Shown here: piece by piece, positions 5,857 to 38,617 of the stretch
Position numbering within the stretch: the first letter of the stretch is position 1
Layout of the letters: every line of letters begins with the position of its first letter
Assembly: GCA_026415985.1 (NCBI GenBank)
Contig: JAOAGA010000002.1
Location: 261 to 58,887 of the forward strand
Direction: 5' to 3'
Length of the DNA: 58,627 bases
DNA from: Pseudomonadota bacterium
GTDB taxonomy: Bacteria > CALINM01
Translations under genes and position numbers: made by a program
The notes under the pieces: generated by a model
The model's input: the letters and a program-made list of their open reading frames with translations, nothing else
Told to the model about the DNA's origin: nothing
Databases searched by the model: none

Positions 5857-5920
5857 TTTAAAAGTAATGTCAGGTTGTTTTGGCTAAGACTTAACTTGAT
5901 TTTAATGGAGGTGGAAGGAT

Positions 5921-6421: not shown

Positions 6422-6453
6422 GCCATGATTGAAATGGTTTTAAATAAAAAGGA

Positions 6454-15497: not shown

Positions 15498-15549
15498 TCG
15501 GTTAAATTAAAAGATTATATAAAAAAAGTTGTAATTACAAGTTTTTTCT

Positions 15550-19073: not shown

Positions 19074-19129
19074 CAAGATTGATTAATTGTTTTTTATTTA
19101 ATATAATTAAAGAAAAAATAGGAGGCTCT

Positions 19130-19870: not shown

Positions 19871-19931
19871 TAAAATTTTCAACCTCTCATATCCTTAAAC
19901 AGGGGGAAATTCATCTTATAAGAGGTGAAAA

Positions 19932-22749: not shown

Positions 22750-22763
22750 CTCTAAAATAATCT

Positions 22764-23714
22764 ATGCAGGAACTAATATCAAAATTTCTCAATATCATTT
22801 ACATAGAGATCTCCAAGATGTGGGTTTTTACCTTCATTAGTATAATTATTGCATCTTTGATAAAGACATATCAGATTGATTTAAAGATAAGGTTTCTTAT
22901 GCAGAAAAAGATTAAAACGGGTATTCTTTTTGCCACATTTGCGGGACTTGTGTCACCCCTTTGTTCCTGTGGAATTTTACCAATTGCCATCTCTCTTTCT
23001 GCTGCGGGAGTTCCATTGCCACCAATAACAGCTCTTCTTTTTACCTCGCCTGCTATGGGGCCGGAAGCTCTTGTGTTGACTTACGGAGGTCTTGGAATTA
23101 AGTATGCGTTAGTGAAATTAATCTTTGCTACTATTTTTGGAATTATAATTGGCTTTGTTTTTCTGTTTCTTCAGAGACTTAATTTCTATACCGAGGATGC
23201 CATAAGGATAAAACCGGTTTTTGATGAAAGGGGCGAGCTTTTATCGTCATACCAGATTGCCTGTGCTAATGATATTTCAATTAAAACTATGAATGTAATA
23301 CCAAGGGAAAGCAGATTTAGGTTTTTTCTTGACAGATTTTACGATATGGCTCTTTTTATTGGTGGGTTAACCTTCTTGGCGATAGTTATAGAAGCTTTAC
23401 TTCATATTTTTATAAGCCAGGATATTCTTAAAAGTTTACTCTCCTATAGTGGTATGTTTTCGGTATTAATTACCGCCTTTATAGGAGGGCTCATTCCCTT
23501 GAATCAGATTGCCTTTGTCCCCATAGCAAAGGGGCTTCAGTCTTTAGGAGCAAGTGATGCGGTAATAGTTACATTAATGTTTGCAGGCCCGACTATTAGT
23601 ATTCCATCTATAATTGTTTTATACAAGATGTTTAAATGGAGGGTTTTCATAACTTTTGTAACAGTTTCTTTTTTGCTTTCTTTGGTAGCAGGTTTAATTT
23701 TTCTCGTTATATAG
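22764..23714 (+). CDS. Polytopic permease with SPLCSCG motif (ArsP/DUF318-like two-repeat permease)
   Basis: About 8 hydrophobic helices. SPLCSCGILP at about 22953-22980. A cytoplasmic loop separates two halves. Confidence 0.6.
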   Translation: MQELISKFLNIIYIEISKMWVFTFISIIIASLIKTYQIDLKIRFLMQKKIKTGILFATFAGLVSPLCSCGILPIAISLSAAGVPLPPITALLFTSPAMGPEALVLTYGGLGIKYALVKLIFATIFGIIIGFVFLFLQRLNFYTEDAIRIKPVFDERGELLSSYQIACANDISIKTMNVIPRESRFRFFLDRFYDMALFIGGLTFLAIVIEALLHIFISQDILKSLLSYSGMFSVLITAFIGGLIPLNQIAFVPIAKGLQSLGASDAVIVTLMFAGPTISIPSIIVLYKMFKWRVFITFVTVSFLLSLVAGLIFLVI

Positions 23715-23852
23715 CGGAAATTAAATGTTAAATATTAGTAAAATGACGTAAAAAGAAAAAGTTGGTAATTTTATATCAGATTTATTTATTTTGTTTTAAC
23801 TTTTATCTTCATTAATTTTTTTAAGAGGCATATTTTTTGCATAATATTTAAC

Positions 23853-23881
23853 TTGAAATTACTAATTTTTAAAGATATAAT
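23853..23881 (+). promoter_or_regulatory. Near-consensus sigma70 promoter (TTGAAA-17 nt-TATAAT) for the FG-GAP/ASPIC gene
   Basis: TTGAAA at 23853-23858, TATAAT at 23876-23881, AT-rich UP-like sequence upstream, AAAGGAG RBS ending at 23904, ATG at 23912. Confidence 0.5.
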
Positions 23882-23911
23882 TTAAAAAACTCTAATAAAA
23901 GGAGTTAGATT

Positions 23912-25369
23912 ATGAAGGTTAAATTGCTTGCTTTTTTCTTAGTTTTATTACTTCCGGTTTTTGCATCTGCACAGAATGTTAAGTTTGAGGATTATTCTGA
24001 GAAGGCAGGTGTGGCTTTTAAAGGAAATGGAAAAGGAGTTGCTATAGCAGATTATAATAATGATGGCCTCCTTGATATCCTGATTTCTAACAAAGGTGGC
24101 GGGATCAGATTGTACAAAAATAATGGCAACGGCACCTTTTCCGATGTCACAAAAGCTGTTGGTTTAGAAGATCTCGGTTATTGTTTAGGCTCTGTATGGG
24201 GTGACATAGACAATGACGGGTGGGTTGATTTATACGTTCCCAAAGGTGGTGTTTATGAGGTGGAAACCAATAGGCTTTTTAGGAACGAAGGTGGCAAGTT
24301 TGTTGATATTACAGATAAGGCCGGTGTTGCAGGTATAGTAGATGGTAAACCCGCTTTTACTTATGGTGCCGCTATGGCTGATTACGATAAAGATGGCTTC
24401 CTTGATATCTATCTTGCAAATTACGGTGTAGGTGCAAAAAATATTCTCTATAGAAATAATGGTAATCTCACTTTTACTGATGTTACTGATACTGCAGGAG
24501 TTGGTGATAAAAGCTGGAGTTGGAGTGCCACCTTTGCAGATGTTAATGGAGATGGTTGGCCTGATATTTATGTAGCCAACGGAAGATATCCTGCTGGTGA
24601 GCCAAATAAGCTATATATTAACAAAGGTGACGGGACTTTCGTTGAAATGGCAGAAAAGTTAGGAGTTGCCGATGACAACTGGTCATTAGGGGCATCCTTT
24701 GCAGATATTGATAACGATGGAGACCTTGACTTGTATGTGTCTAACTATATCGGAGACAATAATCTTTATATAAACGACGGTAAGGGTAACTTTACTAAGG
24801 CGACCAAAAATATTTCAGGTGCGCCTAAAGATCATTGGGGTAAAGGACCAACCTTTGGCGATATTAACAATGACGGTCTTTTAGATTTATACGAAGGTGA
24901 TTGCAAGCTTGCAAATCAGTTATATCTTAATACAGGTGGCGGTAAGTTTAAGAATATTATAAACACTATGCCCGCTTTGAAGTGCGAAACCGTCAGGACG
25001 AAAGGAACGGTCTTTGCTGATTTTAATAACGATGGTCAGCTCGATTTATATGTAGTTAACTGGGGTGCGGCAAATAAACTTTTTATAAACAAATCTAAGA
25101 ATCCAAACTGGTTAGAAATCAAACTCGTAGGTAGCAAGAGTAATAAAGATGCAATAGGCTCAAAAGTCTATGTATACGATGAAAAGGGAAAACTTGTTGG
25201 TTTCAGAGAAGTTGTTACATCTTCCGGCTTCTGTACACAGCCACCAAAGGTACAGCATTTTGGTTTTGCAAAGGCTGGAAAATATGATGTTAAGGTATTG
25301 TTCCCATCAGGTAAATCTGTAGAAAAGAAAGCAGTTGCATTAGGTCAGATACTAACAATCAACGAATAA
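23912..25369 (+). CDS. Secreted FG-GAP/VCBS-repeat beta-propeller protein with C-terminal ASPIC/UnbV domain
   Basis: Signal peptide ending ...VFASAQ. Seven repeats of the (A/G)D-x-(D/N)-x-DG-x-x-D-(I/L)-(Y/L) type (ADYNNDGLLDI, GDIDNDGWVDL, ADYDKDGFLDI, ADVNGDGWPDI, ADIDNDGDLDL, GDINNDGLLDL, ADFNNDGQLDL), then NWLEIKLVG...AIGSKV. Confidence 0.8.
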   Translation: MKVKLLAFFLVLLLPVFASAQNVKFEDYSEKAGVAFKGNGKGVAIADYNNDGLLDILISNKGGGIRLYKNNGNGTFSDVTKAVGLEDLGYCLGSVWGDIDNDGWVDLYVPKGGVYEVETNRLFRNEGGKFVDITDKAGVAGIVDGKPAFTYGAAMADYDKDGFLDIYLANYGVGAKNILYRNNGNLTFTDVTDTAGVGDKSWSWSATFADVNGDGWPDIYVANGRYPAGEPNKLYINKGDGTFVEMAEKLGVADDNWSLGASFADIDNDGDLDLYVSNYIGDNNLYINDGKGNFTKATKNISGAPKDHWGKGPTFGDINNDGLLDLYEGDCKLANQLYLNTGGGKFKNIINTMPALKCETVRTKGTVFADFNNDGQLDLYVVNWGAANKLFINKSKNPNWLEIKLVGSKSNKDAIGSKVYVYDEKGKLVGFREVVTSSGFCTQPPKVQHFGFAKAGKYDVKVLFPSGKSVEKKAVALGQILTINE

Positions 25370-25385
25370 ACTAATGGACTAAGAA

Positions 25386-25409
25386 GGGGGCTTTAGCCCC
25401 CTTTTTTTT
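25386..25409 (+). terminator. Rho-independent terminator
   Basis: GGGGGC-TTTA-GCCCCC hairpin (25386-25401) followed by T8 (25402-25409), 17 nt after the stop codon. Confidence 0.8.
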
Positions 25410-25437
25410 CGGCTCATTTCTTGTTAATCACTAATTT

Positions 25438-26415
25438 ATGAAGTTTTTATTCTTTTTTTTGTTTCTTTTCCTTTCACAAAAGGTCTATTCAGTTGAAATT
25501 ACAGTAAAAACATCTTTTAACTCTCAAAACGTGGAAGGAGTTGATGTTTTAGTTTATAAGGCAGAAGAACATATATATAGAGATAAATATCTTTTTAGTT
25601 CTCAGACAGATAAAGAAGGAAATGCAAGATTTAGACTCTCCGAAGGCAAATATTTTTTAGCGGCAGAAAAAAAGCTGAAAGACGGGATTTTGTTTGGGTT
25701 TTACGGACTCAACCCTATTTATATAAGGGAACCACAGACGATTAATTTGATTCTCGTGAAATATGAAAAAGATTTTATCAGGGAGTTAAGGGAAAAAAGG
25801 ATAGAAGGTTTTGTCTTTTATGAAGGCAATCCTGTTGAAAATGCAGGAATTTACATCTATCTTGATCTTTCCACGGAACTTAAGGGCCCGCCCTATTTAT
25901 TTGCAGTTACAGATGAAAGAGGTTTTTTTTCGTTAGATATACCTGAAGGAAGTTATTATATTATTTTTAGGAAAAGGCAGAATTCTGGGTTTGGTCCGCC
26001 ATCTTCTGGGGATTTAATAGGCTTTTTCCCTCAATTTCCTCTTGTTATAAATAAAAAGGGTGTAAAAATTTCGACAAACCTTTTTAAGATTCCTGAAAAG
26101 AGAGACCTCTCGAAAAACAAGAATCTCTTTCTTATAAAAGGAAAACTTGTCCTAAAAGATGGTAACCCTGCAGAAAAATATTATGTTGGACTATACGATA
26201 ATAGGGAACTTTTAGGAAAACCAGTTTATGTATCGACTCAAACGGATAGTAATGGAAATTTTTCAGTATATGTTAAAGAAAAAGGAAAATATTATGTTGG
26301 TATAAGAAACAATCTTGGTGATACTCCCTCTGAAGACGAGGAAGTCTTTTATTTTAACGAAATAGATATCACTGATGCCAATAAGGAGATGTATTTTGAG
26401 ATTATTATTGATTAA
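25438..26415 (+). CDS. Exported protein with three carboxypeptidase-regulatory-like beta-sandwich modules (paralogue 1)
   Basis: Sec signal MKFLFFFLFLFLSQKVYS. Three modules with (T/S)D-x-x-G-x-F...L-x-EG-x-Y(Y/F) and G-P-x3-GD motifs. Paralogous to 30496, 31536 and 33858. Confidence 0.6.
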   Translation: MKFLFFFLFLFLSQKVYSVEITVKTSFNSQNVEGVDVLVYKAEEHIYRDKYLFSSQTDKEGNARFRLSEGKYFLAAEKKLKDGILFGFYGLNPIYIREPQTINLILVKYEKDFIRELREKRIEGFVFYEGNPVENAGIYIYLDLSTELKGPPYLFAVTDERGFFSLDIPEGSYYIIFRKRQNSGFGPPSSGDLIGFFPQFPLVINKKGVKISTNLFKIPEKRDLSKNKNLFLIKGKLVLKDGNPAEKYYVGLYDNRELLGKPVYVSTQTDSNGNFSVYVKEKGKYYVGIRNNLGDTPSEDEEVFYFNEIDITDANKEMYFEIIID

Positions 26416-28162
26416 GATTGGTCTTTTGTCAGTATTTTGCCTTATTTTAAATACTAAAAATCTACAGGCCGATGAGATACTCAAGAATACAATAATAAAA
26501 AACAACAAAACTATAAGTGGCAGAGTCATAATAGAAGGCAAGGTGACCGTTGAAAAGGGGGCTGTTTTATATATTCAGCCGGGCACACAGATATTATTTA
26601 AAAACCTTGATACTGATGGAGATGGTATTTCTGAAACTTCCCTTTGGATATACGGTAATATAATAGCAAAGGGCGAGAAGGGCAGAAAAATCCTTTTTAC
26701 TTCCTATGAAAAGGAGAAAAAATGGGGAGACTGGAAGGAAATACAGATTAATCATGTGAAGGGTTTTGTATTTGATTATGTTGAGATTCAGTATAGTGAG
26801 TATGGGCTTCATATTCATTTTTCTGAAGGAGAGATTACAAACTCTATATTCAGATATAACAATGATTGCACAAGATTGGGAAACTCAAAAATTTCTTTCA
26901 AAGACAATCTCTTTGAGAAAAATACCGGTAAGGCACTGAATTTCACTAATTGTAATATCCTATTTGAAAGAAATGTTGTAAGAGAAAACAGAGAGGGGAT
27001 TTTTGTATTTGAAAAGAGTGGTTTTGTAACGATAAGAGAAAACAATATTTATAATAATTTCAAAAATATAAAAACGGGAGATTTTTTTAAAGACAAACTT
27101 GTTTTAGAAAGAAATTTTATATATCCCGCAAATAATATCGAAGGTGAAGTAAGATTTGTCGCTGTTAATGAGCCATTTTACGGAATTCTTCCCGACGATA
27201 AAGATGCCTATATAAATTTTATTATCGAGACACAAGGATATGTTGATGGTGGCGGGGTAATAGATGGAGAGAGGTTATACTTTCCCTCCTTTGATGGCAA
27301 TATTTATGAGTATGATTTAAAAAATGGGTATGTCAGGAAATTTTTCATAGATGATTTTTCCGATGCTGTTCCTGTTCTTTATGGCAAAAAACTTTTTTCC
27401 CAAAACTGGCGGGGAGATATAGTTACCTTTGATTTACTTACAGGTAATAAAAAAATCATAGCGTCCTTTGACAAAACATTAAAAGATGATCACAGAAACC
27501 CATCTCCGGTGGTGTTTGATAATAAAGGAGTCTTTTTAAGCCCCGGTGGGAGCCTTTTAGTAATAAATCTTACTGACAATAAAGAATTATTCAGAACAAA
27601 ACTTAACGGAGAGTTCAGGGCAAAACCTTTATTAAATGGTGATCTTTTGTATATTCCTTCGGTAACAGGCGATATATATACGCTATCATTTATTGATTAT
27701 AGTTTAAATAAAGTAAGTTTTGATGGAAGTTTTTATTCCTCTCCTGTTTTTTATGAAGATTCTATAGTTATTCTGAGCAAAGAAGGAAAAGTTTTTTTTC
27801 TCGATAAAAATCTGATTGTAAAAAGAGTTGTCGATTTAAAAAGCTCTTTCAGATACCAATCTCCGATAGTCTTTAATGAAAGTTTATATTTATTTTCTCT
27901 TGATGGTAAAATATTTAAACTTAAGCAGAACGGAGAGCCTGTTCTTTTGAAAGAGACGGAAGAAATATTTACATCAACACCTATTTTATATAAAGGCTTT
28001 ATTGTTATACCGGGATTTTATGGTAATCTTTACTTCTATAGAGATGACAAAACGATAAGAATATCAAATCTGGGAGAGATGCAATTTTCTCCTTTAGTAT
28101 ATGATGATTTTATAATAATTGGCTCAAGGGCAAACAGGGTCTATGGAATTAAAATCTGGTAA
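26375..28162 (+). CDS. Exported right-handed beta-helix domain fused to PQQ-like beta-propeller
   Basis: Signal-like N-terminus. Beta-helix repeats (NSIFRYN, DNLFEKN, RNVVREN, ENNIYNN), then propeller blades (DGNIYEYDLKNG, GDIVTFDLLTG, GDIYTL, EGKVFFLD, DGKIFKL, GNLYFY). Alternative TTG start at 26396, behind AAGGAGA at 26383-26389. Confidence 0.6.
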   Translation: MPIRRCILRLLLIKIGLLSVFCLILNTKNLQADEILKNTIIKNNKTISGRVIIEGKVTVEKGAVLYIQPGTQILFKNLDTDGDGISETSLWIYGNIIAKGEKGRKILFTSYEKEKKWGDWKEIQINHVKGFVFDYVEIQYSEYGLHIHFSEGEITNSIFRYNNDCTRLGNSKISFKDNLFEKNTGKALNFTNCNILFERNVVRENREGIFVFEKSGFVTIRENNIYNNFKNIKTGDFFKDKLVLERNFIYPANNIEGEVRFVAVNEPFYGILPDDKDAYINFIIETQGYVDGGGVIDGERLYFPSFDGNIYEYDLKNGYVRKFFIDDFSDAVPVLYGKKLFSQNWRGDIVTFDLLTGNKKIIASFDKTLKDDHRNPSPVVFDNKGVFLSPGGSLLVINLTDNKELFRTKLNGEFRAKPLLNGDLLYIPSVTGDIYTLSFIDYSLNKVSFDGSFYSSPVFYEDSIVILSKEGKVFFLDKNLIVKRVVDLKSSFRYQSPIVFNESLYLFSLDGKIFKLKQNGEPVLLKETEEIFTSTPILYKGFIVIPGFYGNLYFYRDDKTIRISNLGEMQFSPLVYDDFIIIGSRANRVYGIKIW

Positions 28163-30512
28163 AAAGGCCTTTTATCTGATTTTTTTTGTTTCTTTTTCTG
28201 CCTTTACCTTTGAGCTGTTACTAACAAGAATATTTTCAGTTCTTATGTGGTATCATTTTGCTTCTCTCTCCATAGGTGTGGCAATGCTTGGACTGGGTGG
28301 AGGCGGTATTTTTTCTTATGTGATAAAAGATAAGTTAAAAGAACGAACTATCTATAATGTCCTTATCATTTACTTTTTATCCTTTATCCTGATACATAGC
28401 TTTTTTTTCTATTTTCAACATAGTCCGGAAAAGATAACCCCCTTTCTTGCCTTTTTTCATCAGCCCTATTTTCAGCCCTTTCAGAGAGGTGTGTTTTTTA
28501 GTTTTAATTTTTCAACACTTATTATATTAACAATTGCCTATATTGTTATTACAATCCCCTTTTTTTTAGCAGGTTTTGTAATTTCCTCACTTTTTAAGAT
28601 CCGCTCGAGAGAGATTAAAAGACTATACTTTTATGATCTTTTGGGTGCATCTTCAGGGGCACTTTTTGTTGCAGTTGTTCTTAACTATGTAAGTCCAATG
28701 GCTCTCTTTTCACTTATTGCCGTAATTGGTTTTGCTTTGTTGGCAAAAGAGATTAAGGTCTTATCTATTCCGTTTTTTATAATAGGCATTGTTTTTCTTT
28801 ATTTTAGCTTATTTCAGAAAAGTGATGAAATACCCATAGCAAGAGGTAAGGTAGCAAATGAGATAATCTGGGTTAAGTGGAATAATTTTTCAAGGGTGAT
28901 CCTCTATAATTTAAAAGAAGACGAGTGGTCAAGCCCCTTTGGGCAAAGTAAATATTACCATGGTTATGTTCCGAAACAGTGGGGACTTTTGGTTGATGAT
29001 ACTGGTTACACTGTAGCTTCAGAGTTTCCTGATAATAGAGATAAGTTGGAATTTTTCAGATGGAACATAATATCTTTACCATATCTTATTAATAATAACA
29101 GTGCTTTGATAATAGGTCCCGGAGGAGGAAAGGATATACTTTGTGCCATAGCTATGGGAGTTAAAAATGAAAATATCACTGCCGTTGAACTAAACCCCCT
29201 TATTGTGTCTGCGGTAAATGACGTTCTAAGCAAAGAGACAGGTAGGCTCTATGATAAGGTAAATACACATGTTTCTGAGGGGCGGAGTTTTTTAGAAAAA
29301 AGGGGTGGACAAACTAAGTTCGATGTTATACAGGCAACTTCAGTTTACGGAAGAATTCCACCTGCAGCGGGTATTTTTACCTTTGCTGAAGACAATCTCT
29401 ATACTAAAGAGGCCTTTAGAACCTATTTTTCTTCGTTAAGAGAAGGTGGGCTATTATCTTTATCGAGATTTATCTATGAACAAACTGTTCCTAAAATGAT
29501 TGCCCTTTCTATAACGGGGCTTAAAGATTGTGGGATAGAAGATTTTTCTAAGTCAATCTTTTTAGCTAAGGAAAGAGGTCTTGCAATGGTTCTTACTAAG
29601 AAAGGAATATTTACAAAAGATGAGATAGACATATTGATTAAATACTGTGATGAAAAAGGTTTTGATGTGTTATATTCACCATATTATGATTATGATAATC
29701 TTTACAGCAATTTAATTAAAAGCAGATATGAAGATATAAAAATACCCACCGATGATAGCCCCTTTTATTACTATAACTTATCTAAAAGGGATTTTTTGAA
29801 ATCCTTTTTTAGCCATAACGATAAATTTGAAGAGAGAGGTATGGAGATCTTAAAATTTTTTATTATCATAAGTCTTCTCTTTATATTTTTAATTCTTTTT
29901 TTCCCACTAATTCTTAGGAGAGATAAAAACTATGTCATAAATCGCAATAACTATCTTGTGGGATTATACTTTTTTTTAATTGGTGTTGGTTATATATTGA
30001 TAGAGATAATATTCATTAAGTCTTTCTCACTTTTTTTAGAGACTCCTATGTATTCCATGATCTTTGTTACCTCTGCTATGTTATTTTTTTCAGCACTTGG
30101 TTCTCTTTTTTCTATAAAAGTAAATGAAAGAAAATCTATGATAAAACTTTTTGTGGCATTGATATTGCTCTTATTTTTATTTGGATTTATGTTAGATTTC
30201 ATCAATAAGATTCTTTATCTCAATCTGTATGTGAAAATCGTTATAACATTAATATTCGTAGGTATTCCATCCTTTTTTATGGGGATGCCATTTCCTTATT
30301 TATTAAACTCTCTTGGCAAAAGAGATGAAGGACTAATCCCCTGGGCAATAGCGGTTAACAGCGGAGCCTCTGTTTTAGGAAGTTTTCTTTGTCTTATCAG
30401 TGTTGTAAACTTAGGTTTTAAAGGTTCCTTTTTTATAGGGGCGCTGTTATACATCTTTGTTTTTATAGTTTTTTTGTTAATAAAAGGTAGCGAAAATGAA
30501 AACTTTGTTTAG
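28143..30512 (+). CDS. Polytopic membrane protein with embedded spermidine-synthase/SAM-methyltransferase-like domain
   Basis: About 7 TM helices, then a soluble domain with LIIGPGGGKD (29115-29135), VELNP and GRSFLE, then about 7 more TM helices. Start set at the ATG at 28143 (MELKSGKK). Confidence 0.7.
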   Translation: MELKSGKKAFYLIFFVSFSAFTFELLLTRIFSVLMWYHFASLSIGVAMLGLGGGGIFSYVIKDKLKERTIYNVLIIYFLSFILIHSFFFYFQHSPEKITPFLAFFHQPYFQPFQRGVFFSFNFSTLIILTIAYIVITIPFFLAGFVISSLFKIRSREIKRLYFYDLLGASSGALFVAVVLNYVSPMALFSLIAVIGFALLAKEIKVLSIPFFIIGIVFLYFSLFQKSDEIPIARGKVANEIIWVKWNNFSRVILYNLKEDEWSSPFGQSKYYHGYVPKQWGLLVDDTGYTVASEFPDNRDKLEFFRWNIISLPYLINNNSALIIGPGGGKDILCAIAMGVKNENITAVELNPLIVSAVNDVLSKETGRLYDKVNTHVSEGRSFLEKRGGQTKFDVIQATSVYGRIPPAAGIFTFAEDNLYTKEAFRTYFSSLREGGLLSLSRFIYEQTVPKMIALSITGLKDCGIEDFSKSIFLAKERGLAMVLTKKGIFTKDEIDILIKYCDEKGFDVLYSPYYDYDNLYSNLIKSRYEDIKIPTDDSPFYYYNLSKRDFLKSFFSHNDKFEERGMEILKFFIIISLLFIFLILFFPLILRRDKNYVINRNNYLVGLYFFLIGVGYILIEIIFIKSFSLFLETPMYSMIFVTSAMLFFSALGSLFSIKVNERKSMIKLFVALILLLFLFGFMLDFINKILYLNLYVKIVITLIFVGIPSFFMGMPFPYLLNSLGKRDEGLIPWAIAVNSGASVLGSFLCLISVVNLGFKGSFFIGALLYIFVFIVFLLIKGSENENFV

Positions 30513-31542
30513 ATTAATGTTTTTATCATTACTGTTTCTTAGTGCCTGTGGTAAGGATGAGTTTTCGGTCAGAGGCAGGGTCTTATATAATGATAGGCCC
30601 CTGGAAGATGCTGAAGTATCGGTCTATCTCAAGTTAGAAAAGGACAAGGAAAGACCACCGGTAAAGGTTGTAGCTACTGATAAAAATGGTTTTTTTGAGG
30701 TGAGGCTTAAGAGAGGAAAATATTTTCTGACGGGGAGGAAAAGGTTAGAAGATCAGGGCGAGATAGATATGCTTGTCGGGAGTTACTCTGATACTCCCAT
30801 TGATGTAAAATCAGATCTGGTTTTAAAAGACTGGACCCTTCTTTCCAAAAAAAACAAGGAAGATTTCAAAAAAGGCACAGGAATTAAAGGTATTGTGAAA
30901 AATTTTAAAGATTTTAGAAAGGTAAGAGTCTATGCATATAAAGATACAAATAGCGGGCTTAAAGGTCCCGATTATATTTCCTTTAGTAAAATAGATAAAG
31001 ATGGACAGTTTCAGATGGATTTAAAAGAAGGTGATTTTTATATATCTGTCAGGGAGAGAAAAGGTAGTTTTGCAGGTCCACTGAAGGAAGGTGACAGGGC
31101 TTATGATTATCCAAATAATCCAATAAGACTAACCAAAGATAAATATTTAGATTTAGGTATCATGAATCTGAAAGAAGTTGATAGAAAAAAATTAGAGGAA
31201 CTTAGAAAGACAGGATATTTAAGGGAAGGGGCAATAACAATAAAAGGGGTTGTAGTCGATGAAAATAAAAAACCAGTCAAAAATGTTTATGTGATGATTT
31301 ACAAAGATAGTGAGATGATTGGCAGACCTTTTACAATATCGCTACCTTCCAAAGAAGACGGGACATTTACCATCACTTTGCCTGAGGAAGGTAAATATTA
31401 TGTAGGAGCAAGAACAAAGATCGGCGGGCCTGCGGAACCGGGTGAAAAAATTGGTTACATAAAAGGTTCATCCGATAAGTCAATAAGTGTCAAAAAGGGT
31501 GAGATAAAAAATATAATTATAGAGGTAAAGGAGATATGGTAA
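30496..31542 (+). CDS. Lipoprotein with three carboxypeptidase-regulatory-like beta-sandwich modules (paralogue 2)
   Basis: Lipobox LFLSAC. Modules with TDKNGFFEVRLKRGKYFL, IDKDGQFQMDLKEGDFYI and KEDGTFTITLPEEGKYYV. Loops GPLKEGD and GGPAEPGE. Confidence 0.6.
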   Translation: MKTLFRLMFLSLLFLSACGKDEFSVRGRVLYNDRPLEDAEVSVYLKLEKDKERPPVKVVATDKNGFFEVRLKRGKYFLTGRKRLEDQGEIDMLVGSYSDTPIDVKSDLVLKDWTLLSKKNKEDFKKGTGIKGIVKNFKDFRKVRVYAYKDTNSGLKGPDYISFSKIDKDGQFQMDLKEGDFYISVRERKGSFAGPLKEGDRAYDYPNNPIRLTKDKYLDLGIMNLKEVDRKKLEELRKTGYLREGAITIKGVVVDENKKPVKNVYVMIYKDSEMIGRPFTISLPSKEDGTFTITLPEEGKYYVGARTKIGGPAEPGEKIGYIKGSSDKSISVKKGEIKNIIIEVKEIW

Positions 31543-32573
31543 AAGCTCTGATTTTTCTTTTAAATTTTGTTTTCTTATCCACAATAATTCAGGCAGAAGA
31601 GTTTGGTACAGTTAAAGGCAGAACCGCCTATAAAGGTGAGGTAATAGAGAATGTTTCAATTCTTGTTTATAGAGATAGTGAAAATATCGACTTGAAAAAG
31701 CCGGATAGTGTCTCAGCTAAAACTGCCATTGACGGAACTTATGAGTTTAATTTAAAACCCGGAAAATACTATCTTATTGCCTTAAAAAAACAAGGAAACA
31801 ACAGTAACTTCATCCCGGAAACGGGCGATTATTATTGTTTTTATAGTGGAGCCCCCGTTGAGGTTGTTTCCGGAGGTATAAGTTATGTTGGTTTCAATCT
31901 TATAAAGGTTGGTAAGGAAGGACCAATAAAAAGGGTAAAGGGAGATGGCGGAATATATGGAGAGGTTTTTTTTGAAGGTAAAAGATTAGAAAAATCCTAT
32001 ATCTATGTATATAAGGATTTAAAAACAGGGCTTAGGGGGCCTGCGTATTTTGTCTATCCCTCAAAGGACGGCAGTTTTTCGATAAATCTGCCGGATGGTA
32101 AATACTATATTATCGCAAGAAAAAGAGCAAAAGGCGGGATGTATGGACCTGTGGAAGAAGGGGATTATTTTAATTTTTATTATGGAAATCCTGTAGAGAT
32201 AAAAAAGGGGCAGATGAAGAGTGTAAATATTGAGTGTGTTAAAAGGTTAAGTCAGCTTGAGGAGGGAGTGGGGTTTTCTGAGATTAGTGGCTATGTTAAA
32301 GATAAGAATGGTAACCCTGTAGCAGGTCTTTTTGTTTTATTTTATCAGAGTAAAAACATGCAGGGGAAACCTCTTTATATCTCAGCAAGAACTGACAGTA
32401 AAGGCAGATACTCTATGAAAGTTCCCAAAGGAACCTATTATTTATTGGCGAGAGAAAATATTGGCGGACCTCCCTCTTCAGGTGAGTGGTATGGTCAGTA
32501 TAAAGAAGCCATAACTGTAAAAGACAGTGAAAAGCTTGATTTAATCAACGTAATCATAGAGAGGGTAAAATAG
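31536..32573 (+). CDS. Exported protein with three carboxypeptidase-regulatory-like beta-sandwich modules (paralogue 3)
   Basis: Signal MVKALIFLLNFVFLSTIIQA. Modules with IDGTYEFNLKPGKYYL, KDGSFSINLPDGKYYI and TDSKGRYSMKVPKGTYYL. Loops GPVEEGD and GGPPSSGE. Confidence 0.6.
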   Translation: MVKALIFLLNFVFLSTIIQAEEFGTVKGRTAYKGEVIENVSILVYRDSENIDLKKPDSVSAKTAIDGTYEFNLKPGKYYLIALKKQGNNSNFIPETGDYYCFYSGAPVEVVSGGISYVGFNLIKVGKEGPIKRVKGDGGIYGEVFFEGKRLEKSYIYVYKDLKTGLRGPAYFVYPSKDGSFSINLPDGKYYIIARKRAKGGMYGPVEEGDYFNFYYGNPVEIKKGQMKSVNIECVKRLSQLEEGVGFSEISGYVKDKNGNPVAGLFVLFYQSKNMQGKPLYISARTDSKGRYSMKVPKGTYYLLARENIGGPPSSGEWYGQYKEAITVKDSEKLDLINVIIERVK

Positions 32574-32574
32574 A

Positions 32575-33861
32575 ATGAAAAAGATAGTTTTAATAATGGC
32601 TATTTTTCTATTATCTTTGGAAAACTCCTTTTCACAGCCTGTTTTGGAAGGAAAGGTAAAGATAGAGGGCAGGAAGGAGTTTGCTGAAGGGGCGTTAATA
32701 AAGTCCGGAACAGAGATAATTATTGAAAAGGATAGTGAGTTAGTATTTAAGGGAAAAGTTGAGTCACAAAATATAAAAAAGTCAGAAATAAAGATATTGG
32801 GGAAGGAAAACAGCAAAATATCTTTCGAGCAGGCGGGTGTAAACATTAATTATCTTTCAGTGGAAAATCTTGGCATTCTTGAATTTATAGAAAGTAATGT
32901 AAATTTAAAAAATGTAAAAATAGAAAGGGCTAAGGTTGGTTTGAAAGTTACAAAAAACACCACAGGCTTTATTGAGAATTTAAATATAAGGGATTCGGAG
33001 ATAGGGTTTGTAACAGAGCTAAAGGCAAAGGTTGTTGTTTTAAACAGTACCTTTAACAATAACCAAACAGCCTTTATAGCAGATCAGGCGGGAGTTGCCG
33101 AGATAAAGAACTCCAACTTTTTCAAAAATAATCTGGCCATAGGTGTAAATTTAGATGGGGGAATAAGGATTTTTAACTCAAATATCTATGAAAATGAGGC
33201 GGGAATTACCTTTGTAAAACATATCGGCAGTATTATAAACGAGAATACCTTTAAAAATAATAAAATGGCCATTTATGCTGAGTATATGACAAACATAAAT
33301 ATTGAAAAGAATCAGTTTTTAAAGAATGATACCGCTGTTAAGTTTTATCAGCTTGTTAACGGTAAAATAAGAGGAAATAATTTCAGCAAAAACAGGGAAG
33401 CACTGTGGATAGAGAAAAAATCAAATCCGGATATCCGGTATAATACCTTTACTGAAAACAAGGTGGGGATTTTCTGTGATTTCTCTTCCTATCCGACTAT
33501 AACTTTAAATAATTTTCTTAATAATGATCTTCATATTAAATTGGGTATATATCAATCAGCTGACTTTGAAAACACTACAAGCTCATTTCTGACACAGATG
33601 CAGGAGATGTTGACTCAACAAAGCAAGAGATTATCCCCAAAGGATCAGAAAAGAAAAAGGTATGTGGGAGAGATTTTTGCAAAAAAGAACTACTGGGATG
33701 AGAAAACAAGAAAAGAGATTGATACTAAAGAAAATGTCTCAACCATCTATGATGGATATGATATGGGTGAGGTTTCTTATGAAGGTTTTGGCGATACAAA
33801 ATATAAGGTTGACACAGTTGCCCTTAAACCCTATCTCACTGAGTTAGTCAAAGATAAATGA
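32575..33861 (+). CDS. Exported right-handed parallel beta-helix repeat protein (paralogue 2, longest helix)
   Basis: Signal MKKIVLIMAIFLLSLENSFS. About 10 repeats of roughly 22 aa of the N-x-F-x-x-N-x-x-(G/A)-I type (NSTFNNNQTAF, NSNFFKNNLAIG, NSNIYENEAGIT, ENTFKNNKMAIY, KNQFLKNDTAV, GNNFSKNREAL, YNTFTENKVGI, LNNFLNNDLHI). Confidence 0.6.
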   Translation: MKKIVLIMAIFLLSLENSFSQPVLEGKVKIEGRKEFAEGALIKSGTEIIIEKDSELVFKGKVESQNIKKSEIKILGKENSKISFEQAGVNINYLSVENLGILEFIESNVNLKNVKIERAKVGLKVTKNTTGFIENLNIRDSEIGFVTELKAKVVVLNSTFNNNQTAFIADQAGVAEIKNSNFFKNNLAIGVNLDGGIRIFNSNIYENEAGITFVKHIGSIINENTFKNNKMAIYAEYMTNINIEKNQFLKNDTAVKFYQLVNGKIRGNNFSKNREALWIEKKSNPDIRYNTFTENKVGIFCDFSSYPTITLNNFLNNDLHIKLGIYQSADFENTTSSFLTQMQEMLTQQSKRLSPKDQKRKRYVGEIFAKKNYWDEKTRKEIDTKENVSTIYDGYDMGEVSYEGFGDTKYKVDTVALKPYLTELVKDK

Positions 33862-34874
33862 AAAAACTGTTATTTTTTCTTTTCTTCTTTTTAATTTCAG
33901 AATCTTACGGAAAAGAAGGTAAAAATCTGTCTGGCAGGGTTTTGTTAGATAACTCTCCGGTTGGTAAGGGAGAGGTTATAGCACGGGAAATTGATAAAAA
34001 TGAAATATTTAAAACAGAGACCGATGAGAATGGTTATTATAATATTACACTCAAAGAAGGTGTTTACTCTGTTGAAGCCCAAAAAAGGATAGGTAACATT
34101 TTATATATCGGTTTTTCCGGCAAGAACCCTATCTTGTTAAAGGAAGATACCTATGCGGGAATAAAACTCCTTCCCCCATCTAAAATGACAAGAAAAAAAC
34201 TCAGCGATAGCAAAACAGAAATTGTATTAAAGATTTTATACAACGGAAAGCCTGTTTCTTCAGCGAGAGCCTATCTTTACTTAAAGGAAAAGGATATGAA
34301 AGGGATGCCCTTCTTTTATTCTGAACCTACAGATAAAAGCGGTATTATAAAAATCAGAAATATAATTGAAGGCAGTTATTATATCGTAGTTAGAAAGAAA
34401 AAAGACCATAAACCGTTAGGACCTATTTCAGAAGGTGATTTAATTGGGTTTTTTAGCCAAAATCCTTTAAATATAAAGGATGGCTACAGATATACCATTG
34501 AGATAAATATGTTTCAAAAGATACAGGATGAGATTACAAGCCCATTAGATATCCAAAATGTTAAAAAGATTACCGGGATAGCTCTCAGTGAAAGCGGTGA
34601 ACCTGTTTCAGGAGTCTATGCCTTTTTATATACAAAAAAAGAGATGGGCCATGAAAGACCTATATCTATATCCCGCAAAACTGGAGATGATGGAAAATTT
34701 GAATTATTAGCACCCTTTACAGGCAAGTTTTATTTAGGCGTAAGACAGTTTTACGGTGGAACACCGGTTCAGGGAGAGCTATACGGGTTGTATGATAAAA
34801 CTCATGATCATCATATTAATGTCTTTGATAATATAACAGGGATTATTATAAGGGTTAAAAAGATATTGAGATGA
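33858..34874 (+). CDS. Exported protein with three carboxypeptidase-regulatory-like beta-sandwich modules (paralogue 4)
   Basis: Signal MKKLLFFLFFFLISESYG. Modules with TDENGYYNITLKEGVYSV, TDKSGIIKIRNIIEGSYYI and GDDGKFELLAPFTGKFYL. Loops GPISEGD and GGTPVQGE. Confidence 0.6.
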   Translation: MKKLLFFLFFFLISESYGKEGKNLSGRVLLDNSPVGKGEVIAREIDKNEIFKTETDENGYYNITLKEGVYSVEAQKRIGNILYIGFSGKNPILLKEDTYAGIKLLPPSKMTRKKLSDSKTEIVLKILYNGKPVSSARAYLYLKEKDMKGMPFFYSEPTDKSGIIKIRNIIEGSYYIVVRKKKDHKPLGPISEGDLIGFFSQNPLNIKDGYRYTIEINMFQKIQDEITSPLDIQNVKKITGIALSESGEPVSGVYAFLYTKKEMGHERPISISRKTGDDGKFELLAPFTGKFYLGVRQFYGGTPVQGELYGLYDKTHDHHINVFDNITGIIIRVKKILR

Positions 34875-35704
34875 AGAAGATTTTATTTTTCCTTTTGTTT
34901 ATACCGTCTATTCTTTATTCAGGTGATATTAAGATATATGAGATTAATGGCGTAGAAATCTGGTCCGGTGAGAGGGTTATAGATGGGATTGTTGTAGTGA
35001 AAGAAGGCGCAAAACTTATAATAAAAGGGGGCACGAAGGTTTACTTTAAACCTTTTGATACAGATGGAGATGAGATAGGAGATGGCGAGCTTTATGTTGA
35101 GGGAGAAATATATGTATATGGCGAAAAAGATCAGCCCGTAATATTCACCGCTCTTGCTGACAGGGTAGAACCTAAGATGTGGAAATATGTTATGGTTAAT
35201 CATTCAAGGTATGCTCACATAGAGTATGCTATATTTGAAGGCGCTTTTTCAGGCCTTCAGGTACATTTTTCAAAGGCAAAAGTGAGAAATAGTATATTTC
35301 GAAATAATATTGATGGCTTTAGGTTTTCGACCGCTAATATTGATGTTTGCAATTGCGAGATGCGGGAAAATAAGTATGGCATTCGGTATGAAGAGAGAGA
35401 CTCAACAGGTATAATTCGCTATTGTAACATAACCGGTAACGAGGTTGGCATATTTCCTGTTACTAAAGCAGAAGGTAAAGTGATTTTTAGTTATAACAAT
35501 GTAGTTCAAAACGAGTATAATATAAGGATGGGCGAAGATCAGAAAAAAGATTTAGACTTTTCTAACAATTATTATGGTTTTACCAATGAGAGAGGTATAA
35601 GAAAAACCTTTTATGACAGAGGACGTGATAAAAATTTGTCCACCGTTAAAATAAGGTCTTTTTTAAAGAAAAAAGTTACTTTAGGAGAAGATAAATGTCA
35701 GTAA
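34871..35704 (+). CDS. Exported right-handed beta-helix protein (paralogue 3, short)
   Basis: Signal MKKILFFLLFIPSILYSG. The N-terminal segment GAKLIIKGGTKVYFKPFDTDGDEIGDGELYVEGEIYVYGEKDQPVIFTA is clearly homologous to the start of the 26375 product. Repeats NSIFRNN, NCEMREN, ITGNEVG, YNNVVQN. Confidence 0.6.
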   Translation: MKKILFFLLFIPSILYSGDIKIYEINGVEIWSGERVIDGIVVVKEGAKLIIKGGTKVYFKPFDTDGDEIGDGELYVEGEIYVYGEKDQPVIFTALADRVEPKMWKYVMVNHSRYAHIEYAIFEGAFSGLQVHFSKAKVRNSIFRNNIDGFRFSTANIDVCNCEMRENKYGIRYEERDSTGIIRYCNITGNEVGIFPVTKAEGKVIFSYNNVVQNEYNIRMGEDQKKDLDFSNNYYGFTNERGIRKTFYDRGRDKNLSTVKIRSFLKKKVTLGEDKCQ

Positions 35705-36234
35705 AAAAAATTTTTTTTACAGTTTTATTTGTGGTTCTTTTAATCAGAATTTCAGATGCCTGCGTTGGCAAGACAATTTATGTCGGCCATCTTTCCGGAA
35801 AGGGCGATGAGATTGTAGGAAATATATTGGCTCGGCTTATTACTGAAAGGACCGGTACCTCGGTAAAGTTAAAAAAATACAATGATACCAGCTCACTATT
35901 AAAGGCAGGCACAGGTGGAGAAGTTGATATTTTTGTGGTAGATGATAGGTTTATAGCTGAAACAACGGGACTTAAAAACCGAGACGAAGCAAAAAATATT
36001 TACAACGTTAACCATAATCTGATCTGGCTTAAGGCAATAAATGAAAAAGAAGACTTTTTAGCACCCGTTATAAGAAAAGATACGTTGAAAAAATTTCCCG
36101 CACTGCCAAGATTGCTGGAGAAATTAACAGGTCTTATAAATAATACACAGATAGAGGAGTTAAAGACTGAGGTAGAGAAGAAAGGTATGAAAGATACCAT
36201 AAAGGATTTTTTAAAGAAAAAGAGTTTAATTTAA
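35695..36234 (+). CDS. Exported, truncated OpuAC-like (glycine-betaine-type) substrate-binding domain protein
   Basis: Signal ending ISDA|C. GKTIYVGHL..GDEIVGNILARLITERTGTSVKL...LLKAGTGGEVDIF resembles the N-lobe of OpuAC/ProX binding proteins. Only 179 aa, and no ABC permease or ATPase nearby. Confidence 0.35.
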   Translation: MSVKKIFFTVLFVVLLIRISDACVGKTIYVGHLSGKGDEIVGNILARLITERTGTSVKLKKYNDTSSLLKAGTGGEVDIFVVDDRFIAETTGLKNRDEAKNIYNVNHNLIWLKAINEKEDFLAPVIRKDTLKKFPALPRLLEKLTGLINNTQIEELKTEVEKKGMKDTIKDFLKKKSLI

Positions 36235-36246
36235 AAGAGTAAAAAA

Positions 36247-37125
36247 ATGAACAGAAGAAACTTTTTAAAATATCTTGCCTTTTTAGGAGCCAATTTTGCC
36301 TTTACAAAGGATATTCTTGCCCAAAGTAAAAAAGAACTTGCTATTTCTGAGGGTAAGGATTATGAAAAAATAACCAAAAATGCCATTGATGCACTCGGTG
36401 GTATCTCGAAGTTTGTAAAAAAAGGAGATGTTGTTGTTATCAAACCCAACATAGGCTGGGACAGAAAACCTGAAGAAGGTGCAAACACCCATCCTCTTGT
36501 TGTTAAAGCTGTTACTGAAGAATGTTTAAAGGCAGGTGCCAGAAAGGTAAAGATTTTTGACAGAACCTGCAATGATCCGAGAAGATGTTACGTAAACAGC
36601 GGTATGGCTAATCTTTTACAAAACATAAAAGGTGTTGAACTTAAACACCTGGACAATGAAAAGTATAAGAATTATAAAATTAACGGTGTCTTTATTAAAG
36701 AATGGGAGCTTTATGAAGAGGCTATCAACTGTGATGTATATATAAATATCCCGGTGGCAAAACATCACGGATTGACAGGCTTGACTTTGGCGTTAAAAAA
36801 CATTATGGGAATTATGGGTGGTAACAGAGGATACATTCACAGAGAAATTGAAGAATCTCTTTGTGATTTTAATAGTTTTGTTAAAATTCATCTTCACATA
36901 GTAGATGCTACAAGAATATTATTAAGAAACGGTCCTCAGGGTGGGGGAGTTAAAGATGTTAAAATTTTAAACACGGTATTGGCATCTACGGATCCTGTTC
37001 TTGCAGATGCCTATGCGACAACACTATTCGGTATAAAGCCAGAGGAAATATCTATCACCAAAAGAGCCTATGAAAGAGGTTTGGGTGAGATAAATATCAA
37101 CAGGGCAAAAATAATAAAAGTTTAA
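36247..37125 (+). CDS. Tat-exported DUF362-family protein
   Basis: Twin-arginine signal MNRRNFLKYLAFLGANFAFT. The body (VVIKPNIGW, HPLVVKAV, KHHGLTGLTLALKNIMG) is typical of DUF362. Confidence 0.65.
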   Translation: MNRRNFLKYLAFLGANFAFTKDILAQSKKELAISEGKDYEKITKNAIDALGGISKFVKKGDVVVIKPNIGWDRKPEEGANTHPLVVKAVTEECLKAGARKVKIFDRTCNDPRRCYVNSGMANLLQNIKGVELKHLDNEKYKNYKINGVFIKEWELYEEAINCDVYINIPVAKHHGLTGLTLALKNIMGIMGGNRGYIHREIEESLCDFNSFVKIHLHIVDATRILLRNGPQGGGVKDVKILNTVLASTDPVLADAYATTLFGIKPEEISITKRAYERGLGEININRAKIIKV

Positions 37126-37126
37126 G

Positions 37127-38617
37127 ATGAAAATAACAATTCCCCGATTATCACAAATAGTCTTCTTTATAATTTTTCTGGTTCTTTTTATTAATACCGA
37201 TTACAGAGGCAAAGACGAGATTAATATTGCTATTAATAGCTTCTTTCGGGCAGATCCGCTTGTTCTTGTAACTTATATTCTTTCAACCTTTTCTTTCATT
37301 ACCCTGCTAATTCCTGCTCTTCTCATGGTGATAGCAACATTTTTCCTGGGAAGATTTTTCTGCGGATGGATATGTCCCCTCGGTGCTTTCCTGGATTTTG
37401 TGTCACTTAAGATAAAAAAAAACAGTCAGTTAAAAATATTTAAAGGAAAATTTAAATATTACTTTCTTTTTACACTACTTTTTCTTTCATTGTTTAATAT
37501 CAATTATGGCGGTGTTTTTGATCCCATTGCCATCTTTATACGGTTTCTTACCTTTTTTGTATATCCCTTATTCGGATATGTTGTTAAATCAGGATGGGGT
37601 TGGCTATACGGTATATTCGGAAACAAGATTGAGTTTGCAGAGGGTTTTTACAAAATTATCAAATATAACATTCTGCCTTTTAGGGATACCTTTTACCCCC
37701 TTGCCTTTTTATCAAGCTTTCTTTTTATACTTATAGTTTTCTTGGAAAGATATGAAAAGAGATACTGGTGTAGGCATCTCTGTCCTTTAGGCACACTTCT
37801 TGGGATTTTCAGCAAATTTTCAATATTTAAGAGATTGCCAAAAAAATTATGTTCCGACTGTGGTGAATGTAAAAACATCTGTCCAACAGCTTTCGACAGA
37901 GAGATTTTAAACGAGGAAAATTGTATTATCTGTCTTGATTGTCAGGTTAAATGTAAGTTTGGTAGGGTGAAGTTTAGTCCTTTTAAGTTTAACATTAAAT
38001 CTGCAAATCCTGATTTAAATAAGAGGTTTTTTATAAACTCTTTTATCTTTGGGTTTGTATTATCAAATATCTTTAAAAACGGAAATTACAATAACAAATT
38101 GCTTCGCCCCCCCGGCGTAGCCGATGAAAAAGAGTTTCTGAAAAAATGTGTCCGGTGTGGTGAGTGCATGAAAATTTGCCTTAAAAATGCCCTATATCCT
38201 TCCTATTTAGAGGGGGGTGTATATAGCTTATACACACCCATTTTAATACCAAGAAAAGGTTATTGTGAGTATAATTGTAGTCTCTGCGGTCAGGTTTGTC
38301 CTACAAAGGCTATACCTAAGCTACCTATTGAAGAAAAGAAAAAGCAGGTTATAGGAATTGCCCATTTTGACAAAAACCATTGTCTTCCCTATGCAAAGAA
38401 AACAAACTGTCTTGTTTGTGAAGAACATTGCCCGATTCCCGGTAAGGCAATAAAGATTAAAAAGAGAAGAGAAATAGGTTATAATGACAAAGCTTTTGAA
38501 CTATTGGAACCCTATGTTGATGAGAAGCTATGCAACGGTTGTGGTATCTGTGAGTATGTATGCCCCTTGACAGGAAAGTCAGGAATAGAAGTTTTCCGTG
38601 AGAAACACAGCTTTTAG
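37127..38617 (+). CDS. Membrane-anchored polyferredoxin (NapH/NosR/YccM-like)
   Basis: TM helices with CGWICPLG (37361-37384) and CRHLCPLG (37769-37792). Several 4Fe-4S motifs follow (CSDCGECKNICP, CIICLDCQVKC, CVRCGECMKIC, CSLCGQVCP, CLVCEEHCP, CNGCGICEYVCP). Confidence 0.7.
   Translation: MKITIPRLSQIVFFIIFLVLFINTDYRGKDEINIAINSFFRADPLVLVTYILSTFSFITLLIPALLMVIATFFLGRFFCGWICPLGAFLDFVSLKIKKNSQLKIFKGKFKYYFLFTLLFLSLFNINYGGVFDPIAIFIRFLTFFVYPLFGYVVKSGWGWLYGIFGNKIEFAEGFYKIIKYNILPFRDTFYPLAFLSSFLFILIVFLERYEKRYWCRHLCPLGTLLGIFSKFSIFKRLPKKLCSDCGECKNICPTAFDREILNEENCIICLDCQVKCKFGRVKFSPFKFNIKSANPDLNKRFFINSFIFGFVLSNIFKNGNYNNKLLRPPGVADEKEFLKKCVRCGECMKICLKNALYPSYLEGGVYSLYTPILIPRKGYCEYNCSLCGQVCPTKAIPKLPIEEKKKQVIGIAHFDKNHCLPYAKKTNCLVCEEHCPIPGKAIKIKKRREIGYNDKAFELLEPYVDEKLCNGCGICEYVCPLTGKSGIEVFREKHSF

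Follow-up and report, generated by a model that had tools for sequence, protein, structure and literature searches.

Periplasmic beta-helix proteins with a small exported or lipoprotein partner are known from the NosD/NosL/NosFY system. Short beta-sandwich modules are known from the carboxypeptidase-regulatory-like family (CarboxypepD_reg, PF13620), from the tandem CnaB/SpaA domains of Gram-positive pilins and the Bacillus anthracis protein TIE (6fwv), and from DUF4198 (PF10670) and periplasmic components of the NikL type in energy-coupling factor (ECF) nickel/cobalt transporters. Here we describe a locus that recalls each of these in part. A 58,627-nucleotide stretch of a Pseudomonadota bacterium (contig JAOAGA010000002.1, positions 261 to 58,887; the whole of it is called the window below) encodes four paralogous proteins of three beta-sandwich modules each, for which we use the working name T3 (T3a to T3d, or A to D, in gene order), and three of the four genes are followed directly by a gene for an exported beta-helix protein. 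We find that T3 is a distinct family without a name, marked by a loop that is conserved in modules 2 and 3 and that is not a general property of this fold.

The T3 modules share with CarboxypepD_reg their first 55 to 60 residues, the D-G turn, the G-x-Y-Y strand and the seven-stranded sandwich, whereas their second half, with an Arg...Gly-Pro...Gly-Asp/Glu insertion, a bulged F strand and an N-P turn, has no counterpart in the PF13620 model or in generic repeats. The CnaB/SpaA domains and TIE are the best structural matches and are sandwich chains like T3, but identity to them is only 8 to 16%, and the T3 proteins lack a sortase signal and are periplasmic proteins or lipoproteins of Gram-negative type. 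The roughly 55-residue C-terminal sandwich of DUF4198 and NikL resembles the first half of the T3 module. The likeness to NosD/NosL/NosFY is one of organisation only: a periplasmic beta helix paired with a small partner that is exported or a lipoprotein, a NapH/NosH-like polyferredoxin in the T3 operon, and one fusion of T3 to a beta helix that lies beside an ABC-2 exporter, as NosD does. T3 is, however, unrelated to NosL, and the window holds no nosZ, nosF or nosY.

A first-pass annotation of the window had described four colinear products of 325 to 348 amino acids, and all four are present exactly where it placed them. The genes and their modules are as follows.

25438-26415, + strand: T3a, 325 amino acids, a Sec-exported three-module protein with the beta-helix and propeller gene next to it; modules 1, 2 and 3 at nucleotides 25492-25773, 25792-26091 and 26122-26412, + strand.
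30496-31542, + strand: T3b, 348 amino acids, a three-module lipoprotein with the lipobox LSAC; modules 1, 2 and 3 at nucleotides 30559-30849, 30874-31179 and 31222-31539, + strand.
31536-32573, + strand: T3c, 345 amino acids, a Sec-exported three-module protein and the best conserved paralogue; modules 1, 2 and 3 at nucleotides 31599-31913, 31938-32246 and 32268-32570, + strand.
33858-34874, + strand: T3d, 338 amino acids, a Sec-exported three-module protein; modules 1, 2 and 3 at nucleotides 33915-34181, 34206-34523 and 34557-34871, + strand.

Signal peptides are predicted on all four proteins, three of them of the Sec type and that of T3b of the lipoprotein type; most T3b orthologues also carry a lipobox (35/52 by a crude pattern). 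The four proteins can be aligned end to end at 29 to 36% pairwise amino acid identity, and their thirds are 12 homologous modules of about 100 residues, with nearly all pairs linked in an all-against-all BLASTP comparison (E values down to 2e-19). The core D-G-x-[FY] ... G-x-[YF]-[YF] occurs in 12/12 modules, the only invariant columns being two glycines, and the first-pass count of 12 copies of one module thus stands. A module is always closest to the modules in the same position of the other paralogues, which indicates that the triplication predates the gene duplications and did not occur separately in each gene. The low DNA identity between the paralogues, from which old and selectively maintained duplications had been proposed, is borne out at 46 to 49%. 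Third codon positions are 34 to 37% identical between paralogues against 29% expected from composition and are thus near saturation, so the duplications are old, and they have been maintained, with positional orthologues of each paralogue in Desulfuromonadales and in 'Bacterium BMS3Abin14'.

The loop was defined strictly as G-[PT]-x3-G-[DE]. It is found in 7/12 modules of the window, with Asp in A2, B2, C2 and D2 and with Glu in B3, C3 and D3, and all seven loops quoted in the first-pass annotation are among them.

25969-26013, + strand: loop between strands E and F of module A2, RKRQNSGFGPPSSGD.
31051-31095, + strand: loop between strands E and F of module B2, RERKGSFAGPLKEGD.
31411-31446, + strand: loop between strands E and F of module B3, RTKIGGPAEPGE.
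32118-32165, + strand: loop between strands E and F of module C2, RKRAKGGMYGPVEEGD, between predicted strands 188-196 and 211-214.
32451-32486, + strand: loop between strands E and F of module C3, RENIGGPPSSGE.
34392-34439, + strand: loop between strands E and F of module D2, RKKKDHKPLGPISEGD.
34743-34778, + strand: loop between strands E and F of module D3, RQFYGGTPVQGE.

The proposal of a conserved acidic loop on every module therefore has to be narrowed to modules 2 and 3. The loop of A3 is degenerate (GDTPSEDEE), and in module 1 the strict motif is not found in A, B or D, while C1 has only a shortened P-E-T-G-D (IPETGD). The (K/R)G-P-x-Y segment that had been assigned to modules 2 and 3 belongs to module 2 only (KGPPY, KGPDY and RGPAY, with KGMPF in D2), and module 3 has G-(K/R)-P in its place. 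In both modules the loop is an insertion of 10 to 14 residues between strands E and F with a Gly-Pro turn inside it.

An AlphaFold2 model of T3c, built from a 68-sequence alignment, has a mean predicted local distance difference test score (pLDDT) of 91.4 and a predicted template modelling score (pTM) of 0.73, and contains three seven-stranded sandwiches joined by short linkers. The loop of module 2 joins strand E (G-K-Y-Y-I-I-A-R-K, residues 188-196) to strand F (Y-F-N-F, 211-214), and a G-N-P bulge at 220-222 interrupts strand F before it continues. The corresponding loops lie at 307-317 in module 3 and at 85-98 in module 1. The mean pLDDT of the 10-residue blocks that hold the two loops is 87 (residues 201-210) and 94 (residues 311-320). 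Consecutive strands of a seven-stranded up-and-down sandwich run in opposite directions, and by this strand order the E-F loop would share a pole with the A-B and C-D (T-D-x-x-G) turns and with the C-terminal end of the module. The loop of module 2 would then face the next module, and that of module 3 would lie at the free end of the protein.

Comparison of the T3c model with the PDB by Foldseek gave a probability of 1.0 to tandem CnaB or prealbumin-like proteins, namely TIE (6fwv), Gram-positive pilins, SdrD and DUF3823; differences in domain arrangement keep the overall TM-scores low. CarboxypepD_reg scores 43.5, 49.7, 60.3 and 37.5 bits for A, B, C and D against a gathering cut-off of 32.3, but the match does not span the 82 positions of the model: the best stretches cover positions 1 to 56 and end just before the loop. 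Pfam, AlphaFold2 and Foldseek thus agree with the carboxypeptidase-regulatory or transthyretin-like fold proposed earlier, and the assignment of the T3 modules to prealbumin-like, CarboxypepD_reg-type beta sandwiches holds at the level of predicted structure. A search of solved structures with the full-length T3 family profile gave no significant match. With the module profile only the generic first 60 positions matched structures in the PDB (NOMO, a phage tail-fibre N domain, pilin CnaB and PA1324).

Other families were considered as a home for the T3 proteins, which also have partial Pfam matches to DUF4198, SpaA, TTR-52 and similar models, and were rejected. The DUF4198 match covers only about positions 144 to 206 of 209, with C at 29.5 bits against a cut-off of 34 and A, B and D passing only through summed partial matches. 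The NikL model gave 13 to 30 bits against a cut-off of 100, and there are no ECF transporter genes nearby. The radical-SAM-associated lipoprotein model TIGR04134 gave 33.2 bits for B and 16.3 for C against 39.8, and the cluster has no radical SAM gene. SdrD_B (PF17210) reached about 22 bits from partial matches against a cut-off of 29.7, and the matches to TTR-52 and DUF6795 were partial or below the cut-off. The isopeptide chemistry of CnaB domains was also rejected, as there is no conserved Lys in strand A and no triad of Lys, Asn/Asp and acid among the invariant or nearly invariant T3 columns. The best full-length profile match was to a YkuD L,D-transpeptidase (E = 0.016 over 35 residues), where residues 79-113 of Bacillus subtilis YkuD, 'TPTGEFYIINRQRNPGGPFGA', align with 'PPGxYYLLARKRxKGGxYGP' of the T3 profile, at window positions 32070-32170 (about T3c residues 179-212). 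The fold differs and there is no catalytic His/Cys motif, and this similarity is probably due to chance. No Pfam or NCBIfam model describes the T3 family, and its relatives are labelled in their source records as 'hypothetical', 'carboxypeptidase regulatory-like domain-containing' or 'DUF4198 domain-containing'.

The first-pass annotation had taken the loop to be foreign to the carboxypeptidase-regulatory family, and a large protein search agrees with this. Among 1.84 billion representative proteins, a profile built from the 12 modules matched 16,857 at E <=1e-3 and 226 at E <=1e-30. The best 150 of those matches fall mainly into two classes. In 65 giant multi-repeat proteins of at least 1,000 residues (507 modules), the median match ends at position 61 of 102, 11% of the modules reach position 85 or beyond, and the loop motif occurs in 3%. 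In 77 three-module proteins of up to 520 residues (234 modules), the median match ends at position 97 of 102, 87% of the modules reach position 85 or beyond, and the motif occurs in 42%. The chance expectation is 3.3 to 3.5%, so the giant CarboxypepD_reg proteins are at chance level, and the loop is not generic to the family. Among these best 150 matches it is confined to three-module proteins of about 350 residues, and the Pfam and PDB matches likewise stop before it.

A genome scan gave 57 related loci. When a module hidden Markov model was run on these and on loci collected before, it picked out 188 proteins, of which 165 have exactly three modules; the loop was counted on 158 unique three-module proteins. 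The strict motif is present in module 1 of 3/158, in module 2 of 107/158 and in module 3 of 89/158. The residues that frame the loop are far more constant. The Arg that ends strand E is found in 99% of both module 2 and module 3, the acid that starts strand F is Asp in 100% of module 2 and Glu in 96% of module 3, and the Gly before the acid is found in 93% and 83%, respectively. Arg and acid occur together in 156/158 copies of module 2 and 155/158 copies of module 3 against 17/158 copies of module 1, and the two columns belong to the best conserved ones of the module. In the 68-sequence full-length alignment, R195, G204, P205 and D210 (T3c numbering) are 4 of 17 invariant columns; in the C3 loop R306 and G310 are invariant and G311, P312 and E317 are at least 90% conserved; and E233, R237 and E242, in the linker that follows module 2, are nearly invariant. 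There is no conserved His, Cys or Met among the invariant columns of this alignment. Three modules with R-x(9-14)-G-D in module 2 and R-x(9-14)-G-E in module 3 make up a diagnostic signature of the family.

The inner positions of the loop are variable overall. They and the adjoining positions of strand F are constant within the T3b, T3c and T3d groups and different between them, and they rank 2 to 6 of 99 columns by mutual information with the paralogue group. At the level of sequence, the co-occurrence of Arg and acid suits a structural clamp or a surface for protein docking better than a metal site. A role in docking or structure ranks well above metal binding, because there is one acid per loop, always with the Arg, and no conserved His, Cys or Met.

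The genes that follow T3a, T3c and T3d in the window are these.

26375-28162, + strand: partner of T3a, 595 amino acids, an exported right-handed beta helix fused to a PQQ/BamB-like beta propeller.
32575-33861, + strand: partner of T3c, 428 amino acids, an exported NosD-like beta helix, starting 2 nucleotides past the T3c stop.
34871-35704, + strand: partner of T3d, 277 amino acids, an exported short beta helix whose start overlaps the T3d stop by 4 nucleotides.

In the related loci a beta-helix gene stands directly after the T3 gene in 109/118 labelled neighbour pairs, with median gaps of at most 2 nucleotides. The listed start of the beta-helix-propeller open reading frame overlaps the end of T3a by 41 nucleotides (26375-26415). 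Orthologous pairs overlap likewise (median -45 nucleotides when starts are assigned by a crude rule); the actual start codon may therefore lie inside the listed frame. The partners have diverged faster than T3c: between the window and Desulfuromonadales their identity is about 28% and that of T3c about 43%. The NosD family model (TIGR04247) gives them only 38.4 and 16.8 bits against a cut-off of 300, and there are no nos genes among the neighbours, so that an identity with NosD was rejected. In the PDB their matches are NosD (E = 0.013), the C5-epimerase AlgG and a xylosidase, with E values of 0.012 to 0.04. The partners are only generically beta-helical.

Among the mid-sized matches that were scanned, five are single fused polypeptides, with T3 before the beta helix in P0203, P0205 and P0151 and behind it in P0235 and P0240. 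The 770-residue P0235 (locus L064, positions 1124-5811, on a contig of Logan SRR25638280) adjoins a BtuF-like binding protein, a NodI/NodJ-like ABC-2 exporter and a PQQ propeller, which recalls NosD with NosFY. The 675-residue P0203 (locus L065, positions 5124-8002, on a contig of ENA ERZ21838770) is followed by a 284-residue CarboxypepD_reg protein and stands alone among ffh, rpsP, rimM, trmD, rplS and rnhB. A homologue search with a beta-helix partner gave 39 matches and no fusions. The fusions support a functional unit of T3 and beta helix that moves between contexts.

The T3 proteins are exported chains of three rather rigid sandwich domains with no recognisable catalytic motif, and their genes are translationally coupled to those of the beta-helix proteins. 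We propose that they are non-enzymatic periplasmic adaptors of the beta-helix proteins and that the loop is an Arg-acid clamp that holds a paralogue-specific surface, a reading that we regard as the most likely of those considered and as evenly balanced between right and wrong. Each T3 protein would bind the NosD-like beta-helix protein encoded directly downstream, and such pairs would work within an operon of about 17 kb that acts in the cell envelope. The loop would be a structural clamp in which a contact between the Arg and the acid combines with the turn geometry of Gly and Pro, and the clamp would hold the specific surface at the C-terminal pole of modules 2 and 3, directed toward the next module or toward the partner. 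The fold, the export signals, the conservation of the loop within this family, the gene pairing with its synteny and the fused forms are observed here, whereas physical binding between T3 and beta helix, the contact between Arg and acid, the place of the loop on the module and the role of the operon as a whole are steps that we infer.

Several observations weigh against this proposal. In the lineage of the window T3b has no beta-helix gene of its own and yet keeps both loops. Evidence for the suggested pairing is limited to gene order and a few fusions; these are known from single metagenome contigs, and those with the beta helix before T3 could be frameshift artefacts of overlapping genes. 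The stand-alone fusions P0203 and P0205, which join T3 to a beta helix, do not have the strict loop motif, and hence some associations of the two do without the loop.

The same two fusions fit the most serious alternative, which we consider doubtful. Here the loops would be purely intramolecular, stiffening the module or packing on the following linker or module, and T3 would be a rigid spacer or stalk with no role for a ligand or partner. A constant Gly, Pro, Arg and single acid with variable middle positions is what turn geometry and a salt bridge typically look like, both T3c loops are predicted with high confidence, the pTM obtained for a three-domain chain suggests fixed packing between modules, and the linker after module 2 hardly varies. 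However, the loop of module 3 is at the free C-terminal end, where no following module is available for packing, and the strong paralogue specificity of the variable loop positions is not predicted by a purely structural turn.

Adaptors of this kind would act among the products of a tight 15-gene operon of about 17 kb (window positions 21431-38617), in which stop and start codons overlap and which holds the following further components.

21431-25369, + strand: conserved upstream genes for an AAA ATPase, an FmdE-like protein, an ArsP_1 permease and an exported FG-GAP/ASPIC protein.
28119-30512, + strand: a SpeE-like membrane protein of 797 amino acids with seven transmembrane helices, a spermidine-synthase-fold domain and about seven more transmembrane helices.
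35695-38617, + strand: conserved downstream genes for a short OpuAC-like lipoprotein, a Tat-exported DUF362 protein and a NapH-like membrane polyferredoxin.

One gene order recurs in about 40 long loci. It runs from AAA, FmdE, ArsP_1, in part of them FG-GAP/ASPIC and a T3 gene, through the beta-helix-propeller and the membrane SpeE-like gene to T3b (in part of them with a beta helix), T3c and its beta helix, and T3d and its beta helix, and ends with the OpuAC-like lipoprotein, the Tat-exported DUF362 protein and the NapH-like polyferredoxin. It is present in Desulfuromonadales metagenome-assembled genomes, and in 'Bacterium BMS3Abin14' and in relatives of the window's own low-GC lineage the order is identical to that of the window. 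Geoalkalibacter halelectricus (CP092109) has a variant that keeps the FG-GAP gene, the membrane SpeE-like gene and three T3/beta-helix pairs; the AAA, FmdE, ArsP, OpuAC-like and DUF362 genes are not in its 21-kb locus. Upstream there is a divergent block of genes for EB_dh, a two-module CarboxypepD_reg protein, a HEAT-repeat protein and a Fer4_5 protein, and a gene for a 2,715-residue multihaem cytochrome follows the T3/beta-helix cluster (positions 14820-21086 of locus L002). The core of Geothermobacter hydrogeniphilus is similar to that of G. halelectricus. Literature searches found no relevant paper on the cluster or its parts.

The AlphaFold2 model of the SpeE-like protein (pLDDT 88, pTM 0.90) has a soluble domain with the aminopropyltransferase fold (Foldseek TM-score by target about 0.55 to 0.6), and its profile matches the SpeE structure 1inl with E = 2.6e-9. 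Its 'GPGGGKD' aligns with the SpeE 'GGGDGG', so that the nucleotide-binding glycine motif for decarboxylated S-adenosylmethionine is kept. Where SpeE has the catalytic D-S-T-D-P it has Q-A-S, and its chemistry may therefore differ from aminopropyl transfer. Distant homologues in Hydrogenedentota and Anaerolineae stand alone, with no T3 or beta-helix genes, and the SpeE-like protein alone does not define the system. The DUF362 protein (36247-37125) begins with a twin-arginine signal (MNRRNFLKY...) and is thus probably exported folded with a cofactor. The OpuAC-like protein (35695-36234) is a 179-residue lipoprotein with a lipobox (...ACVGK), and its similarity to the glycine-betaine-binding domain is limited to the final part of that domain. 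Outside the operon the window is ordinary chromosome, with aroA, rpsA, mutS, dnaG, rpoD, mdh and sdhA-like genes. Over the whole window (positions 1-58627) the GC content is about 32 to 40%, the GC skew is positive in every 2-kb segment (0.10 to 0.34), and 51/55 open reading frames of at least 120 amino acids are on the + strand; the window as a whole seems to be on the leading strand of one replichore.

A broader version of the adaptor proposal takes in these components. The T3/beta-helix pairs might be an undescribed two-component periplasmic module, arranged as the NosD carrier and its lipoprotein partner are, with the loops as paralogue-specific docking sites, and three or four pairs together with the SpeE-like enzyme and a quinol-linked polyferredoxin and DUF362 protein might form a new envelope machine shared by Desulfuromonadales, some of them metal-reducing, by 'Bacterium BMS3Abin14' and by the lineage of the window. 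We consider it unlikely that all of this is correct.

The SpeE-like neighbour also enters into a different explanation, which we find improbable, namely that the acidic loops bind a cation, either Ca2+ or a polyamine-like product of this protein, and that T3 proteins are periplasmic carriers or sensors; this comes near the ligand or metal site suggested in the first-pass annotation. The invariant acid is followed by aromatic residues (GDYF, GEWYG, GELYG), a combination that occurs in polyamine-binding sites, and the SdrD B domains, relatives of the T3 fold, bind Ca2+. However, a single acid that always comes with a conserved Arg favours charge neutralisation within the protein and is not accompanied by the His, Cys or Met of a metal site, the SdrD_B model stays below its cut-off, and the loss of D-S-T-D-P makes the polyamine product itself uncertain. 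It is still more improbable that T3 proteins bind carbohydrates or mediate surface adhesion in a secreted polysaccharide system whose beta-helix proteins are glycan-modifying enzymes like AlgG. The weak match of the module profile to PA1324 (E about 0.1), by annotation a putative carbohydrate-binding protein, and the AlgG and xylosidase matches given above are all non-significant, and the conserved cluster has redox components (DUF362, polyferredoxin) and a permease instead of a polysaccharide-type glycosyltransferase, polymerase or exporter, even though beta-helix, FG-GAP, propeller and CarboxypepD_reg domains are common in surface glycan systems.

In conclusion, the fold of the T3 modules is among the commonest in secreted bacterial proteins, and what is new is a compact unnamed family with a diagnostic signature. 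This family marks an uncharacterised 15-gene envelope operon that combines exported beta helices, a membrane SpeE-like protein and redox proteins directed to the periplasm, and the operon is more interesting than the modules themselves. The core genes are present, in a variant arrangement, in the cultured isolates Geoalkalibacter halelectricus and Geothermobacter hydrogeniphilus. If the pairing of T3 with the beta-helix proteins is physical, the T3 proteins, being small and well folding and having cultured hosts, would be a tractable entry point to this system.

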